DNA from: an uncultured delta proteobacterium
Lineage (GTDB): Bacteria; Desulfobacterota; SM23-61
Length of the DNA: 64,000 nucleotides
NCBI GenBank assembly: GCA_963760605.1
Contig: CAVXFA010000054.1
Coordinates: 23,380 to 87,379 of the forward strand
Direction: 5' to 3'
Under the pieces are notes generated by a model. The model did no database searches. It was not told where the DNA came from and saw only the letters and a list, made by a program, of their open reading frames with translations. Both the position numbers and the translations under genes were made by a program. Shown piece after piece: positions 18,947 through 53,520 of this stretch; positions within the stretch are counted from its first letter, which is position 1; every line of letters begins with the position of its first letter.

Positions 18947-21604
18947 TTGGCGGGAAAGTTTAGCCAATTTTTCAAAGGGCGAAACGGTTACCGGGGGCCA
19001 GATATTTTGCCTGAGTTTTCATCCTTGAGTCCACCGGAGAACACGAAGACCTACCGGACGGATGTTCACCCCTCCCAGATGGGGTGTGATCTGTGCGGTC
19101 TTCCACTGGGCCGTTCAAAAATACAGCAGGGGATGGGAGAAAAAAATTTTCGCTTTTGTTGCCTGGGGTGCCAGCAGGTATTTCTTATTCTCTCCACCAA
19201 TCCTGATGGGATGCCCGCAAACTTTCGGGAGACGGAACTTTATAAAGCCTGCGCGGAGTCCGGCATCATTCCTCGAGCGGAAGAAGATCTAAGTTCCCAT
19301 GAAGCTCCCGCGGATTCTCGAAAGCAAGAACCCTCTCCTCCTCCTCCTCTAAGTCTGACCATGAAGGTGGCAGGGATGTGGTGTCCGGCCTGCTCCTGGT
19401 TGATCGAAGAAGTACTCCGCAAAACCAGAGGGATCTTGGAAGCCAAGGTTTTCTTTCTCTCCGACCTGGTTCAGGTGAGATACTTTCCTCATAACCTGTC
19501 TCCACCGGAGATTATGACCCGGATATCAAAGCTGGGATACCAGCCGTCGCTTCTCCAGGATGGGTCAGCGAGTGCGCGAGAAAAAAAGGACCTCCAATTA
19601 CGCCTGGGTATCTCTGCCATCCTGTCCATGAATGTAATGATGATTTCCTTTGCCCTGTATGCCGGGTTTTTCCGGGATCTGTCCCAGACCGTGATCGGAT
19701 ATTTTTCCTATCCTCTTTGGCTGATGACCACGCCGGTGATTTTTTATGGGGGTCTTCCGATTCTCAGAAGGGCTTATGCGGGACTGCGATATGGCCGCAC
19801 CTCGATGGACACTTTGATCTCTGTGGGGGCTCTGGCGGCCTATTTTTACAGCCTCGTTCAGATGGCCAGGGGCAGCCTTCATCTCTACTTCGATACGGCA
19901 TCCATGCTGATCACCTTAGTCCTCCTGGGAAAATACATCGAGACCCATGTCCGGGAAAAGGTGTCGGCGGGGATTACCGACCTTTATAAATTGGCCAACC
20001 AGAAAGTTCGCCTTTGGATCGGGGGGCAGGAGAAGTGGGTTTCCCCGGAGGCCGTCCAACCAGGATATGAATTCCAGGTTCATTCGGGGGAGCGCATTCC
20101 CTTGGATGGGCAGATCATCGCCGGCTTAGGGCATGTGGATCAATCGATCTTTACCGGAGAGACCCTGCCTCTAAGAAAAGGCCCGGGGGATGAAGTCATG
20201 GGGGGAGTCTTGCTTCTGGAAGGTGACCTGAAACTTAAGGTAACCCGCGTTGGTCAAGAGACCACTCTGGGACAGATGATCGCCTTGACGCAAGAGGCTC
20301 TTGACAAGAAAAACCCGGTGGAGCTGCTCGCCGACCGAATCACCCGCTGGTTTGTACCCTTCATCTTTGTCATTGCGGGCGTCGTAGCCCTCTCGCTCTG
20401 GAGGTTCAATTCTTCCGTCGATGAAGCTCTGCTTCGCAGTCTGACCGTGATCATCATTTCCTGCCCCTGTGCCCTCGGCATCGCCACTCCTCTGGTGAAA
20501 GTGGCGACCATGGGAGTGGGCCGGGCCAAAGGAATTCTGGTTCGCAATCCAGGGGCTCTCGAGCAGGCCAAAGACTTAGACACCATCTTCTTCGATAAAA
20601 CCGGGACATTAACCGAGGGGAATTTCTCCCTCCGGGAAATCATTGCCGAGGGCGTCTCAGAGCGAGAAGCTCTGGGTCGGCTGGCCCCCGTGGAGGCTTT
20701 CTCTGATCACTTCCTGGCAAAGGAGATCATTCACAAAGCGAGGGAAATGTCCGTAAAGATGGAAGAAGCCACCGCCTTTGAAGACTTCGAGGGCATGGGG
20801 GTGAAAGGCTTTATTGGGGGAAGAGAAATTTTCATCGGCAATCGTCAGCTGATGAACAAGTTCGGGATGGATCTTTCATCTTCTTTGGAGAAAAGAGCTT
20901 TCTCCTCGGAATCAAGAGGAATGACCGTGGTCTTCTTCGGGTGGGATCAACAGGTTCGCGGATTTCTCGTTTTGGGGGATTCCATCAAGCGCGGTGTCCC
21001 GGAGTTGGTGCAGAAACTCCAGGCCCGGAACATTACTCCTTGGTTGGTCTCCGGAGATGCGCCAGAGACCACCCGGGCAGTGGCTGAAGAATCCGGCATA
21101 AACCAGTTTCGGGGGCAGGCCTTGCCTCAAGATAAGGTGGAGCTCATCAGGTCTGTTCAGCAAGAGGGTCATCGAGTAGGGATGGTGGGCGATGGGATTA
21201 ATGACGCTGCCGCTCTTGCCCAGGCGGACGTGGGTTTTGCGCTGGGAACGGGAACGAATATCACCCGAGAGGCATCGGATTTTACTCTGTTGGCCGCGGA
21301 GCCAACCCGCGTTCTCGAAGTTCTCGATTTATCAGCTCTCACCACCAAGACCGTCCGTCAGAACCTCTCCTTTGCCTTTCTTTACAATGCTCTGGCGATC
21401 CCGCTGGCAGTCGCAGGCCTTCTGAATCCACTCATCGCTGTCTGCGCCATGTTCGCCAGCAGCCTTACGGTCATCGGAAATGCGCTGAGGATTTCCAGAA
21501 ATGAAACCCCTGACGACTCTCCCATTCCCCCACAGTCTGGTGACCCGAATTCTCCTTCATCCTTAAAGGATTGGCGGGCAGACCCAAAAAAGATTAATTT
21601 GTAA
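18947..21604 (+). CDS. ccoI: Copper-translocating P1B-type ATPase (CcoI/FixI-like)
   Basis: CDLCG..FCCLGC, MWCPAC, TGET, SCPCALG, DKTGT, GDGIND; exact start uncertain. Confidence 0.88.
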   Translation: MAGKFSQFFKGRNGYRGPDILPEFSSLSPPENTKTYRTDVHPSQMGCDLCGLPLGRSKIQQGMGEKNFRFCCLGCQQVFLILSTNPDGMPANFRETELYKACAESGIIPRAEEDLSSHEAPADSRKQEPSPPPPLSLTMKVAGMWCPACSWLIEEVLRKTRGILEAKVFFLSDLVQVRYFPHNLSPPEIMTRISKLGYQPSLLQDGSASAREKKDLQLRLGISAILSMNVMMISFALYAGFFRDLSQTVIGYFSYPLWLMTTPVIFYGGLPILRRAYAGLRYGRTSMDTLISVGALAAYFYSLVQMARGSLHLYFDTASMLITLVLLGKYIETHVREKVSAGITDLYKLANQKVRLWIGGQEKWVSPEAVQPGYEFQVHSGERIPLDGQIIAGLGHVDQSIFTGETLPLRKGPGDEVMGGVLLLEGDLKLKVTRVGQETTLGQMIALTQEALDKKNPVELLADRITRWFVPFIFVIAGVVALSLWRFNSSVDEALLRSLTVIIISCPCALGIATPLVKVATMGVGRAKGILVRNPGALEQAKDLDTIFFDKTGTLTEGNFSLREIIAEGVSEREALGRLAPVEAFSDHFLAKEIIHKAREMSVKMEEATAFEDFEGMGVKGFIGGREIFIGNRQLMNKFGMDLSSSLEKRAFSSESRGMTVVFFGWDQQVRGFLVLGDSIKRGVPELVQKLQARNITPWLVSGDAPETTRAVAEESGINQFRGQALPQDKVELIRSVQQEGHRVGMVGDGINDAAALAQADVGFALGTGTNITREASDFTLLAAEPTRVLEVLDLSALTTKTVRQNLSFAFLYNALAIPLAVAGLLNPLIAVCAMFASSLTVIGNALRISRNETPDDSPIPPQSGDPNSPSSLKDWRADPKKINL

Positions 21605-21605
21605 C

Positions 21606-21633
21606 TCAAGATATAAAAAAGAAGAGCCGATAC
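21606..21633 (+). promoter_or_regulatory. sigma28/FliA-like promoter
   Basis: TCAAG-N15-GCCGATAC directly upstream of the rod RNA. Confidence 0.45.
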
Positions 21634-21641
21634 GGAAGATA

Positions 21642-21785
21642 GAAATCTGCGATGCTCGTTGGCGAACCGGAGGCGGATTCTAACACCAGAATATATGGTC
21701 CTTTGGGGAGCATCCCCTGAAATAGGACCAAAATTAAAAAAAGGAGATTTCGCGGCTCCCGGACGCAACGGCCTGCGCGGATTTC
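21642..21785 (+). ncRNA. ssrS: 6S-like RNA (long rod with central bubble)
   Basis: GAAATCTGCG/CGCGGATTTC closing stem; CGTTG/CAACG and CCGGAG/CTCCCGG pairings; A-rich central bubble; TGGTCCT/AGGACCA apical stem; 5' CTGCGATGCTCG resembles 6S 5' ends. Confidence 0.6.
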
Positions 21786-21788
21786 CAT

Positions 21789-21823
21789 AACCCCCAATAG
21801 GGAAATCCTATTGGGGTTTTTTT
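21789..21823 (+). terminator. Rho-independent terminator
   Basis: CCCCAATAGG-loop-CCTATTGGGG followed by T7. Confidence 0.85.
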
Positions 21824-22018
21824 ATTATTCCATTCCCCTCCCCCCTTTTTTCCCCTTCCCGCCTGGACAGCGGAAATGTTGCTTTTATGAATCCATCGAT
21901 AGTGAAAGGATCAGAAATTTAGGGTATGATGGAAAAGATGGAAAACTTCGACCACGGCCTACGTTTAAACTGAGAATCTGAATCTCGACTTTCAAAAGAA
22001 GACACCTGCGAGGAGCCT

Positions 22019-22789
22019 ATGAATGAAATGTTCAACTTGAAGGGGAAAGTAGCCATTGTGACGGGCGGCAATGGAGGCATAGGGAAGGGAATAGGCCGCG
22101 GCTTTGCAGCGGCGGGGAGCGAAATTGTCATCGCCGCGCGTAACCCGGCCAAGACCGCTGAAGCGGTGCGCGAAATCCAGGAAGAATTTGGCGTGCGGGT
22201 GCTGGGTGTGCAGGTTGATGTTCGCGAGGAAGGCCAGATTCGAAGGATGGTGCAACAGGTGCTCGATTTATTTGGCCGGATCGACATTCTGGTGAATAAC
22301 GCCGGTACAAACATTCGGAAGAACCCCCAAGATTACGATCTTTCCGAATGGGATGAAGTTCTCAACACCAACCTCCGCAGTGCCTTCTTGTGTTCCAAAG
22401 CTGTTTATCCGGTTATGAAGTTGGCGAAAAGGGGCAAGATGATCAACATCGGCTCGATGACTTCGATTTTTGGAAACCCTCAGGCTCCCCTTTATGGTGC
22501 GAGCAAAGGCGGGATCGTCCAATTGACGCGCAGCCTCGCCGTCGCCTGGGCCCCGGACCACATCCAGGTGAACGCCATCCTCCCCGGCTGGATCAATACC
22601 GACTTGACCCGGAATGCCCGCAAGGCCTGGCCCAATTTGAATGAACGCGTCCTCGCCCGGACACCCACCGGGCGCTGGGGCGAGCCAGCCGATCTGGCCG
22701 GAGCCGCCATTTTCCTGGCCAGCCATGCCGCGGATTTCGTGACAGGTGTAGCCCTGCCGGTGGACGGCGGGTTTTCTGTGATGATGTGA
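22019..22789 (+). CDS. SDR-family oxidoreductase (KduD/gluconate 5-dehydrogenase-like)
   Basis: TGGNGGIG, NNAG, YGASK, VDGG. Confidence 0.88.
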   Translation: MNEMFNLKGKVAIVTGGNGGIGKGIGRGFAAAGSEIVIAARNPAKTAEAVREIQEEFGVRVLGVQVDVREEGQIRRMVQQVLDLFGRIDILVNNAGTNIRKNPQDYDLSEWDEVLNTNLRSAFLCSKAVYPVMKLAKRGKMINIGSMTSIFGNPQAPLYGASKGGIVQLTRSLAVAWAPDHIQVNAILPGWINTDLTRNARKAWPNLNERVLARTPTGRWGEPADLAGAAIFLASHAADFVTGVALPVDGGFSVMM

Positions 22790-22813: not shown

Positions 22814-23389
22814 TTGCGATCAGATCAAGAACGGTGGGATGAAAAATATAGAGGAAAGGGGTTAGTCTTAGGAACAGAGGCCAACCCCTTCCTGAGAAAG
22901 CATATCCGCCTCCTTCCCAAAGGAAAGGCCTTGGATATTGCCACGGGGGAGGGAAAGAATGCGGTCTTTCTCGCTCACCATGGTTTCGATGTGGAGGCAG
23001 TCGATATCTCTAAATTTGGACTGAGGAAAGCACAGAAATTGGCCAAAGAGAACGGGGTCAGGATTCGAACGCTTCACGCCGACCTCGACCACTACCAGTT
23101 AGAAGAGGGGCGATATGACCTCATTACAGACTTCTACTTCCTCGATCGGCGTCTGATCCCCGGGATCAAAAGAGGTTTAAAAAAGGGAGGAAGGGTGGTT
23201 TTTGAAACCTACCTCATGGAACAGATGTCTCTCAGCAATGAAGGACCCAAAAATCCCCGCTATCTCTTGAAGCCCAACGAGCTTCTTACCCTTTTCAGGG
23301 GATTCCGCATTCTTTTCTACCGGGAGGGAATCTTCAGAGAGGGTGGAACCAGAAAAGCCATTGCCAGCTTGATCGCCGAAAAAGTCTGA
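22814..23389 (+). CDS. Class I SAM methyltransferase (TehB-like)
   Basis: WDEKY, ALDIATGEGKNA, LLKPNELL; TTG start. Confidence 0.8.
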   Translation: MRSDQERWDEKYRGKGLVLGTEANPFLRKHIRLLPKGKALDIATGEGKNAVFLAHHGFDVEAVDISKFGLRKAQKLAKENGVRIRTLHADLDHYQLEEGRYDLITDFYFLDRRLIPGIKRGLKKGGRVVFETYLMEQMSLSNEGPKNPRYLLKPNELLTLFRGFRILFYREGIFREGGTRKAIASLIAEKV

Positions 23390-51734: not shown

Positions 51735-52118
51735 ATGAAGATAGGCCAATCGAAATATCGCCATTTGACCACGGTAGTGATTTTACTGCCTTTTTTTGCT
51801 GCTCCTTTCCTCGACAGTATGGTCTGTGACGATTTTGCCAGGGGTTCACCCTGCCCGGGTGGGGGCATCGAGATCCCATGTGAACATTTTCTGGGAGGAA
51901 ATGGAACCAGATCGGAAAACGATGCCCAACCAAGTCACCCGTCCTCTTCGGACCACGGGAGCGTTCACCATTTCTGCCCCATATGCTTCACGATTGCTAC
52001 ATCCACCTGTTCCAATGATATCGGGATTCCTCGCACAGTCATCCTATTCAAGCTTCCGCCCCTTCGCATAGCCTTCTCCCAGATCTATTCTTCTATCTAC
52101 AAGCCACCGCAGAATTAG
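51735..52118 (+). CDS. Small His/Cys-rich protein (DUF2946/CzcI-like) heading the czc operon
   Basis: Signal-like N-terminus, HHFCPIC, C-terminal IYKPP. Confidence 0.6.
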   Translation: MKIGQSKYRHLTTVVILLPFFAAPFLDSMVCDDFARGSPCPGGGIEIPCEHFLGGNGTRSENDAQPSHPSSSDHGSVHHFCPICFTIATSTCSNDIGIPRTVILFKLPPLRIAFSQIYSSIYKPPQN

Positions 52119-52215
52119 AATCTGGTCTCCATCCATTCACGAGATCGTTTCTTGCCGCTTTGAAAGCTCCTCAAGGAAATTGGAGCATAACCAGGTCGTG
52201 AGACGAGGTAGAACC

Positions 52216-53520
52216 ATGAAGAATCTGATTCTGTCTTTAATCTTTTTTTTGAGTGCGTTTATGGGGGACAACATTTCATGCCCAGCAAATTCCGCAGCCC
52301 AGGAACCAAGACCGAAGCCTTCTCCCGGTCTGACCCTGGCCGAGGCGATTGCCCAGGCCCTGAGCCAAAACCGTGACCTCCCCGTTGCTCGCGAAGAGGC
52401 GGCGATCACTCGCGGCCGACTCGAGCAGGCCCGCCGTTATCCCTTTAATCCTGAAATGGTTTTCGAAGGGGAAGCCGGCTACGGCAAAGGGCGCGAACTT
52501 GGTACTATGGAGGAGCGCCGAGGTGTCGCGGGGGCGCGTATTGGTCTCTCTCAGGTGCTGGAGATCCGTGGGCAGCGCGGCCTGCGAACCCAGGTGGCCC
52601 AGCGGGATGCGGTCCGGGCCGAATGGGAAGTTTGCGATACGGAGCGGGAGACGATCGCGGATACGATGAAAGCCTTCAGCGACCTGCTCATCGCTCAGGA
52701 GAGACTGCTCCTAACGCGCGAAGTGGCGAACCTTGTGACGCACCTCAAAGAGAACGCGGACGATTTGGCGCGGGCCGGCGCGGTCCCGGAGCTCGATGGC
52801 CTGCGCGCCGATGTGGAGCGGCGGCGGGTGCTGAACCGGCTGACCCTGGAGGAAACCGCGGCCTCTGCGGCAAGACGCACGCTGGCATTGCTTATGGGTG
52901 CTGAACCGGCAGTCCCCCTGAAAGTTACGGGTCCGCTCCTCTTTGAGCCGGCGCCGGGGAAACCGGAGGATCTACTCAACTTCGCCCGAGCCAACCGTCC
53001 AGACCTGAAGGCGGCGGAAGCCGCCCTGGACAGCGCCGTTGCCTCCCGGAGTCTCATCTTTGCCGAACGCCTCTTCCCGACCCTTACCCTCTCGGCTTTC
53101 TATAGTGAGACGGAGGAGTTCGATGCCTATAACCGCCGCGGCATTCTCGGAATCTCCGCGCCTCTGCCGATTTTCAACCGTCGCGAGGGGGATGTGAGCG
53201 CTGCCGGGGCGGTAATTCGTAAACAGGAGGCCCAGCGGGCCCGTCTCTTCGCGCGGATTGAAAAAGAGGTCGCCACGGCTGCCGAGCAGTTTGCGGCGGC
53301 CCGGCGGGTGGTGGAGGAATACGTGGCCCGGATCATACCGGCCCAGGAGGAGAATGTAAAGATCATTAGTGAGGGATACCGTCTGGGCGAGTTCCGATTG
53401 ACCGATGCGCTCCTGGCGGAACGGGACCTTTTTGAGACGAGGAGCACCTATCTCGAGGCGATCTCCACTTACAACTCGGCACTGGCGGAGATCTATCGAT
53501 CGACGGGGATGAGGCCATGA
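52216..53520 (+). CDS. czcC: TolC-family outer membrane efflux protein
   Basis: LTLAEAIAQAL..N, RPDL, PLPIFNR, GYRLGE. Confidence 0.85.
   Translation: MKNLILSLIFFLSAFMGDNISCPANSAAQEPRPKPSPGLTLAEAIAQALSQNRDLPVAREEAAITRGRLEQARRYPFNPEMVFEGEAGYGKGRELGTMEERRGVAGARIGLSQVLEIRGQRGLRTQVAQRDAVRAEWEVCDTERETIADTMKAFSDLLIAQERLLLTREVANLVTHLKENADDLARAGAVPELDGLRADVERRRVLNRLTLEETAASAARRTLALLMGAEPAVPLKVTGPLLFEPAPGKPEDLLNFARANRPDLKAAEAALDSAVASRSLIFAERLFPTLTLSAFYSETEEFDAYNRRGILGISAPLPIFNRREGDVSAAGAVIRKQEAQRARLFARIEKEVATAAEQFAAARRVVEEYVARIIPAQEENVKIISEGYRLGEFRLTDALLAERDLFETRSTYLEAISTYNSALAEIYRSTGMRP

Follow-up and report, generated by a model that had tools for sequence, protein, structure and literature searches.

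The stretch of DNA analysed here (the window, 64,000 nt in length) carries, between a heavy-metal P-type ATPase gene and a short-chain dehydrogenase gene, a long base-paired rod that is preceded by a sigma28-like promoter motif and followed by an intrinsic terminator. Reading from the stop codon of the ATPase gene, the order of elements is TAA (21602-21604), c, TCAAG (21607-21611), atataaaaaagaaga, GCCGATAC (21627-21634), ggaagat, A and GAAATCTGCG. The features are given below; the conservation counts refer to the sets of relatives described in the next section.

18947-21604, + strand (shared with the RNA): heavy-metal P-type ATPase gene, the upstream neighbour
21607-21611, + strand: -35-like element TCAAG; T[AC]AAG is kept in 7/7 class genomes and 15/15 pattern loci
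21627-21634, + strand: -10-like element GCCGATAC, assigned from sequence and conserved in the class genomes and pattern loci
21641-21787, + strand: 6S-like RNA rod body, 147 nt, from fold, RF00013 alignment, homologues and covariation
21642-21652 with 21776-21785, + strand: closing stem, from the fold
21642-21681 with 21745-21785, + strand: closing and internal (lower) stems, from the fold
21682-21695, + strand: 5' strand of the bubble, 14 nt
21696-21730, + strand: two-tier apical stem, from the fold
21731-21744, + strand: 3' strand of the bubble, 14 nt, A-rich
21792-21816, + strand: intrinsic terminator hairpin, 11 pairs of which 6 are G-C, followed by TTTTTTT (whole element 21792-21823)
22019-22789: short-chain dehydrogenase gene, the downstream neighbour

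The region 21638-21790 folds with a minimum free energy of -58.2 kcal/mol (z -4.22) and the rod plus terminator with -75.7 (z -5.13); in neither case was any of 200 shuffles as good. The preliminary description of this DNA had proposed a rod of ~144 nt (21642-21785) with closing, internal and apical stems around a bubble, followed by a strong terminator, and both its coordinates and its anatomy agree with the computed fold, the terminator being the 11-pair hairpin and T run listed above. The reverse strand is nearly equal in fold quality (z -4.38). From the predicted start to the terminator T run (21641-21823) the span is 183 nt, and the transcript is predicted to measure ~183 nt if the terminator hairpin is retained.

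Distribution and covariation of the RNA family

A BLASTN search with a 231-nt region against 41 relatives gave just two chance matches of 27-28 nt, so that relatives were reached only by covariance models, namely R1 (built on the single sequence), R2 (on the first five sequences) and R3 (broader). R1 gave full-length matches in four same-family genomes. R2, with 150 of 258-578 candidates scored per genome, placed the RNA in at least seven of 17 class genomes (in our sample the class, order and family sets are the same 17 genomes), the carriers being the organism's own genus, all five genomes of genus g8 and the single genome of genus g9. Under the same scoring R2 found no match in genera g2-g7, and R3, applied to one genome each of g2, g7, g6, g4 and g3 with 150 of more than 1000 candidates scored in each, found none in these five. 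Ten of the 17 class genomes, at 150 candidates scored per genome, gave no match to the RNA although they have FliA. R3 detected the RNA in 12/21 genomes of another order, represented by families f54 and f36 (the f54/f36 order), in 8 of the 151 genomes of a phylum sample and, as weak matches of 21-25 bits, in 4/9 genomes of a third order, represented by family f20. Two further matches, L016 (22.4 bits, R1) and L023 (21.9 bits, R2), had none of the shared motifs and were dropped as non-homologous. In addition, a pattern that describes the RNA only, with no promoter letters, yielded 16 loci, 3 of them in species genomes and 13 in metagenomes; it reaches close relatives only. Fifteen of these 16 loci carry the RNA (13 distinct sequences, with 3 being the same records as class genomes), and the remaining one, the metagenomic L074, lies in coding sequence and fits the pattern by chance.

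Across 33 distinct sequences 88.8% of the cells of the modelled pairs are paired, and 26 of the 34 modelled pairs of the lower rod show compensatory changes on both sides, figures that are flattered by an alignment fitted to the model. As controls, none of 500 shuffles reached any of five covariation measures, and sliding the pairing partner by 1-3 columns lowered the paired fraction to 30-49%. Compensatory changes in the apical stem were judged by eye among the long forms. The preliminary description had named a lack of covariation in relatives as one ground for rejecting its proposal; the 26 pairs do display such covariation. A U.G pair is kept in 30 of the 33 sequences and would give a C-A mismatch on the other strand, which indicates an RNA on the + strand; as judged from sequence, promoter and terminator agree with the conserved U.G pairs in fixing this strand. 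DNA nearly identical to the window is present in public runs, from sediment, peat and wetland habitats, and the four positions at which it departs from the window, 21665, 21719, 21723 and 21736 (where one base is missing), are all unpaired; the metagenome locus L081 shows the changes at 21665, 21719 and 21723.

A conserved motif of the family, UCUAACAC (21679-21686), is formed by the 5' strand of the bubble and the stem bases that precede it. All of the first five class sequences have TCTAACA here without change, and it returns in identical or near-identical form across lineages. The forms of g8 and g9 measure 117 nt and keep the promoter, the lower rod and UCUAACA, with an apical part that consists of only a 4-6-bp hairpin. 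The RNAs of the f54/f36 order measure 155-175 nt, and most of them have an additional hairpin in the 3' strand of the bubble and a terminator-like hairpin after the rod. In the f20 loci (genus g28; L044, L085-L087) a conserved 3' extension of ~40 nt (AAGGTGGTCGGTCAACCTAACTACCTAAC...) separates rod and terminator. A GC-rich hairpin, mostly with a T run, lies 3' of the class homologues and of most of the other-lineage homologues printed. Two small ORFs were considered as the product of the locus and rejected, a 43-aa ORF at 21659-21790 and a 56-aa ORF at 21811-21981: homologues of 117-121 nt against 153 nt differ by 32-36 nt, in most cases a number that three does not divide, and Pfam gave no match for the 56-aa ORF.

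The RNA occurs in one copy in the organism's own genome (3.96 Mb), and the genes beside it change from genus to genus: in g8 a glyoxalase on one side and either a methyltransferase or an NmrA-like gene on the other, an aldo-keto reductase and a DUF5122 protein in g9, and other genes again in the other orders. Because its neighbours change between genera, the RNA is best described as a free-standing gene, neither a UTR nor a leader. A TehB-like SAM methyltransferase gene (22814-23389) follows the dehydrogenase gene in the window, and a methyltransferase gene also adjoins the RNA in two g8 loci (L013, L018), on the opposite side from that in the window. Pyrimidine-rich (C/T) tracts follow the terminator at 21829-21860 and likewise lie past the terminator in g8 and g9 loci (L012-L015, L017); CCTCCTTCC tracts of a similar kind precede the RNA at L031, L034 and L037, three loci of the f54/f36 order.

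Conservation in relatives makes both the rod and the promoter motif more than a matter of chance, and we are almost certain that the locus holds a real, conserved RNA gene. It belongs to a divergent RNA family of this delta-proteobacterial phylum that lies outside the recognition of Rfam 15 at its thresholds.

The sigma28-type promoter

The consensus for sigma28 (FliA) promoters consists of TAAA-N15-GCCGATAA-type elements. The preliminary description had pointed to TCAAG, a 15-nt spacer and a sigma28-like -10 element 5' of the rod, and these are present at 21607-21634, the motif ending 7 nt before the first paired base. The deviations in the window are TCAA rather than TAAA at the -35 element, a spacer one base longer than in the relatives and a final C. 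The motif T[AC]AAG-N14/15-G[CT]CGATA[CT] stands at the same place in all seven RNA-bearing class genomes, 4-5 nt ahead of the first model position, with a spacer of 14 nt (15 in the window) and with spacers and flanks that have diverged. It recurs in all 15 RNA-bearing pattern loci. The preliminary reading of a sigma28-like motif is thus borne out in every class-level homologue, and a similar motif is found before flagellin genes: the flagellin gene of the organism itself has TAAAG-N14-AACCGATAA ~150 nt upstream, and among the flagellin loci of six class genomes 4/10 carry TAAAG-N14/15-NCCGATAA.

Outside the class, all four f20 homologues of genus g28 have TTAAAG-N14/15-GCCGATAAG. Among 16 other-lineage homologues the sigma28 motif was seen in one (from f20) and in none of the remaining 15, four of which match a strict TTGNNN-N16-18-TANNNT, with several more showing TTGACx-N16/17-TATAxx by eye; many homologues of the f54/f36 order have sigma70-like promoters. 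In one genome of that order the RNA (G173:C35:56988-57143, L028) lies ~4.5 kb downstream of fliA (51803-52468), one of two fliA copies, and no sigma28 motif was seen ahead of this RNA despite fliA on the shared contig.

FliA scores above cut-off in 14 of the 17 class genomes, including all six RNA-bearing relatives, and in the four f20 genomes. In the organism's own assembly fliA is present as an N-terminal fragment at a contig end (G000:C7:51410-51628; L009 1411-1629), after a MinD/FlhG-like ATPase gene; FHIPEP (FlhA) had no match anywhere in this assembly, which is 96.5% complete. A search of the 3.96-Mb genome on both strands gave only 25 instances of the looser motif T[AC]AA-N14-16-G[CT]CGATA. 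Among the other copies with a downstream ORF scanned, none lies ahead of a flagellar gene, which complicates the picture; they precede genes for a molybdopterin oxidoreductase domain protein, a phosphotyrosine phosphatase, a PilT-like ATPase and a PAS/GAF sensor, among others. Two near-identical copies on contigs C60 and C99 (TAAAGCTATTT[TC]CC[T]TTAAATGTCGATA), one of them before a small helix-turn-helix gene, are suggestive of a repeat or a mobile element more than of a flagellar promoter.

Taken together, the conserved motif, its counterpart before flagellin genes and the presence of FliA make the dependence of the RNA on FliA well supported by comparison, and we infer such dependence from sequence. 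A FliA-type promoter is probably in use here.

Relation to 6S RNA and alternative readings

When the rod alone was scanned against 4227 Rfam families, the best of them was 6S RNA (SsrS; RF00013), at 23.5 bits (E 0.0027) and below the gathering score of 46.4 bits. The model aligned end to end, positions 1-187 on 21641-21787, with agreement mostly in the closing stem (CUGCGAUGCUCGU ... ACGGCCUGCGCGG), although a full-length score of 23.5 bits comes from a covariance model that may reward any long hairpin. RF00013 did not report the rod in the whole window at the gathering score, in a 521-nt E-value scan or in multi-locus E-value scans. The comparison with RF00013 that the preliminary description recommended therefore returned the expected family and alignment at a score short of its cut-off. 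In sequence profile, an nhmmer search built on 15 canonical 6S RNAs of the phylum returned only the canonical 6S locus of the organism's own genome (E 1.3e-52), the rod locus being absent at E<=10, and the canonical profile gave at best 5.8 bits against the 33 family members (best shuffle, 4.1).

The architecture is nevertheless that of 6S RNA: closing and internal stems lead up to a large bubble open on both sides, a terminal, apical stem lies beyond it, and covariation supports the rod. The closing stem has CUGCGAUG.UCGU ... ACGGC...GCGG, upper-case letters of the RF00013 consensus, and the additional hairpin that most homologues of the f54/f36 order have in the 3' strand of the bubble is shared by many 6S RNAs. 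Several features differ. The E. coli ssrS gene has sigma70/sigmaS promoters and a processed transcript, whereas the rod RNA comes with a sigma28-type promoter and a terminator of its own. The zapA-ssrS synteny is also lacking at the rod locus, which is flanked by the P-type ATPase and dehydrogenase genes, away from zapA, where the canonical copy sits. This canonical 6S RNA of the organism (G000:C74:21787-21975; L001 1501-1689; 97.2 bits with RF00013) lies directly after zapB-zapA and upstream of an RNase Y gene, which is where the preliminary description had suggested that another 6S should be sought. Canonical 6S RNA scores above cut-off in 15 of the 17 class genomes and in 5/5 f20 genomes, and two genomes, G129 and G159, have it together with the rod RNA. 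These lineages thus have two rod RNAs, the canonical 6S and, as the second, the RNA described here. This much of the proposed short second 6S paralogue stands; for membership of the 6S family its score, 23.5 against 46.4 bits, falls short. G159, with a canonical 6S of 84.4 bits and the rod RNA, also has a weak RF00013 match of 30.4 bits (G159:C257:7595-7774, L027) that may be its third rod RNA.

The picture is different in the f54/f36 order, where a whole-genome search with RF00013 gave no match in any of the 21 genomes, so that the rod family is the only 6S-like RNA found there. It looks like the only 6S of these organisms. The loci concerned are L019, L021 and L028-L038, in the order of G122. 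One of them, L031, reached 38.0 bits with RF00013 (E 1.3e-6), below 46.4, and was likewise not reported in the whole-genome search. RF00013 thus probably has a blind spot here, with 0/21 genomes credited with a canonical 6S, yet 12/21 carrying the rod family. At the other extreme of size, the 117-nt g8 form L015 gave no RF00013 match even in a narrow scan.

For 6S RNA two reports give a length of 160-200 nt (PMC8414754, PMC11077062); the rod is shorter, at 147 nt in the window and 117 nt in g8 and g9, and the span from predicted start to terminator T run is 183 nt. According to a third report, 6S-1 RNA cut down to its bubble and two short arms still binds, templates product RNA and is released in vitro, with ~ten-fold weaker affinity (PMC8876501), so that short size alone leaves the 6S mechanism possible. 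Judged from the modelled structure, polymerase binding of the 6S type by the rod RNA is about evenly balanced between likely and unlikely.

Other RNAs offer partial parallels. Bacillus subtilis has a second 6S-type RNA, 6S-2 (BsrB), beside the main one in one genome; such second paralogues are sigmaA-transcribed and, unlike the rod RNA, they pass as 6S. Two 6S copies are reported for some Firmicutes (PMC8414754). The Ms1 and CoRP RNAs of actinobacteria are structured, resemble 6S RNA, escape 6S models and bind RNA polymerase (PMC11077062); unlike the rod RNA, they are about 300-500 nt long, bind the core enzyme and come from another phylum.

The most serious alternative is a small RNA of the FliA regulon that is not a polymerase mimic, acting instead by base-pairing through an UCUAACAC seed or as a protein scaffold or sponge, with a likeness to 6S that extends to the rod shape only. 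We consider it a genuine contender, though somewhat doubtful. The low 6S score and the lack of a profile match speak for it, as do the g8 and g9 forms, which keep promoter, lower rod and UCUAACA and lose most of the apical stem. The gene context is also unconserved, as expected for a trans-acting RNA. There is precedent in E. coli, where UhpU, MotR, FliX and FlgO are sigma28-dependent sRNAs. One report ties E. coli sRNA synthesis to FliA and flagellar assembly and describes sigma28-dependent sRNAs that regulate the synthesis of flagella (PMC10578931); the rod RNA resembles these in its FliA-linked synthesis, predicted from its promoter motif, and differs from them in being free-standing, long and covarying, whereas they are UTR-derived and base-pairing. 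Against this alternative, a full-length RF00013 alignment and a 38-bit homologue would have to be a coincidence if the RNA were not a mimic. The seed version fares worse: such RNAs usually have a free 5' end or free loops, whereas here 34 selected base pairs form a long rod, which would be unusual, and pairing in the closing stem ties up the 5' end. Although UCUAACAC is left unpaired, a crude duplex scan of the bubble strand against positions -60 to +30 of 7924 naive ORF starts, with top matches unannotated, gave a best value of -22.7 kcal/mol (mean -9.9, sd 2.5) and no outlier. Within the FliA-regulon alternative, the length and covariation of the rod and the pairing of its 5' end favour a scaffold that binds protein over an RNA acting through a seed. 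A sponge for CsrA was rejected, the GGA motifs of the RNA lying mostly within stems and being unconserved.

Two further readings carry little weight. The rod might be a cis element, either the 3' UTR or terminator of the P-type ATPase gene, whose stop codon lies 37 nt before its start on the same strand, or the leader of the dehydrogenase gene. One public RNA run has contigs over 21454-21600 and 22248-22300 only, which reach the end of the ATPase gene and, being contigs, show neither absence of the RNA nor transcript starts. This reading is very improbable: the neighbours change in every genus, the RNA is accompanied by its promoter motif and terminator, and ~195 nt lie between the RNA terminator and the dehydrogenase gene, including a separate sigma70-like site at 21902-21930, downstream of the RNA and the sole one reported in a scan of 21000-22500. 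A non-functional chance palindrome or mobile-repeat remnant, for which the good fold on both strands might speak, has a negligible likelihood and, judging by sequence comparison, is refuted by covariation as far as computation can show, given a single genomic copy, compensatory changes kept across orders, a conserved U.G pair that would be C-A on the opposite strand, and natural variants that fall 4/4 in loops.

A proposed role for the RNA in motile cells

In our best reading, which we hold with about equal belief and disbelief, the RNA is a divergent second 6S-like RNA that is made by the sigma28 holoenzyme and acts as an open-promoter mimic on RNA polymerase in motile cells. Transcription would be started by the sigma28 (FliA) holoenzyme at about 21641-21643, from T[AC]AAG-N14/15-GCCGATA[CT], and would end at the RNA's own terminator. 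With such a FliA-driven start we propose that the RNA accumulates during expression of the late flagellar genes. The rod, its bubble open, would then occupy RNA polymerase holoenzyme as a mimic of an open promoter, and the sequestered holoenzyme would re-partition transcription in motile cells. Release may proceed via short product RNAs, for which the conserved UCUAACAC strand is the presumed template; both polymerase binding and product-RNA synthesis are here deduced from the 6S-like features of the rod.

More tentatively, and in our estimate rather unlikely as a whole, this 6S-like branch could be wired into the flagellar hierarchy and be sigma28-transcribed in at least two orders. It would then restrain RNA polymerase, or feed back on it, according to the motility state of the cell, whether by sequestering the housekeeping holoenzyme, which would free core enzyme for sigma28, or as a decoy for the sigma28 holoenzyme, which would amount to negative feedback.

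In the literature searched, a body that lies apart from surveys of 6S distribution, we found no case of a sigma28 promoter driving a 6S-type gene, nor a pair of a canonical and a second 6S RNA in delta-proteobacteria. There, 6S RNA appears as a growth-phase brake on the housekeeping polymerase that is expressed from housekeeping or stationary-phase promoters. If our reading is true, a FliA-driven 6S-like RNA ties the global partitioning of polymerase to flagellar assembly, a coupling undescribed in that literature. On the more tentative reading, the 117-nt forms, which lack the apical arm taken to mimic the -35 region, would be the smallest natural RNAs of the 6S type and could have changed their preference of holoenzyme. 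The forms of 117, about 150 and about 170 nt, under sigma28-type or sigma70-like promoters, make up a natural series in which the parts that a 6S-type RNA requires, and the holoenzyme to which it binds, could be sought.
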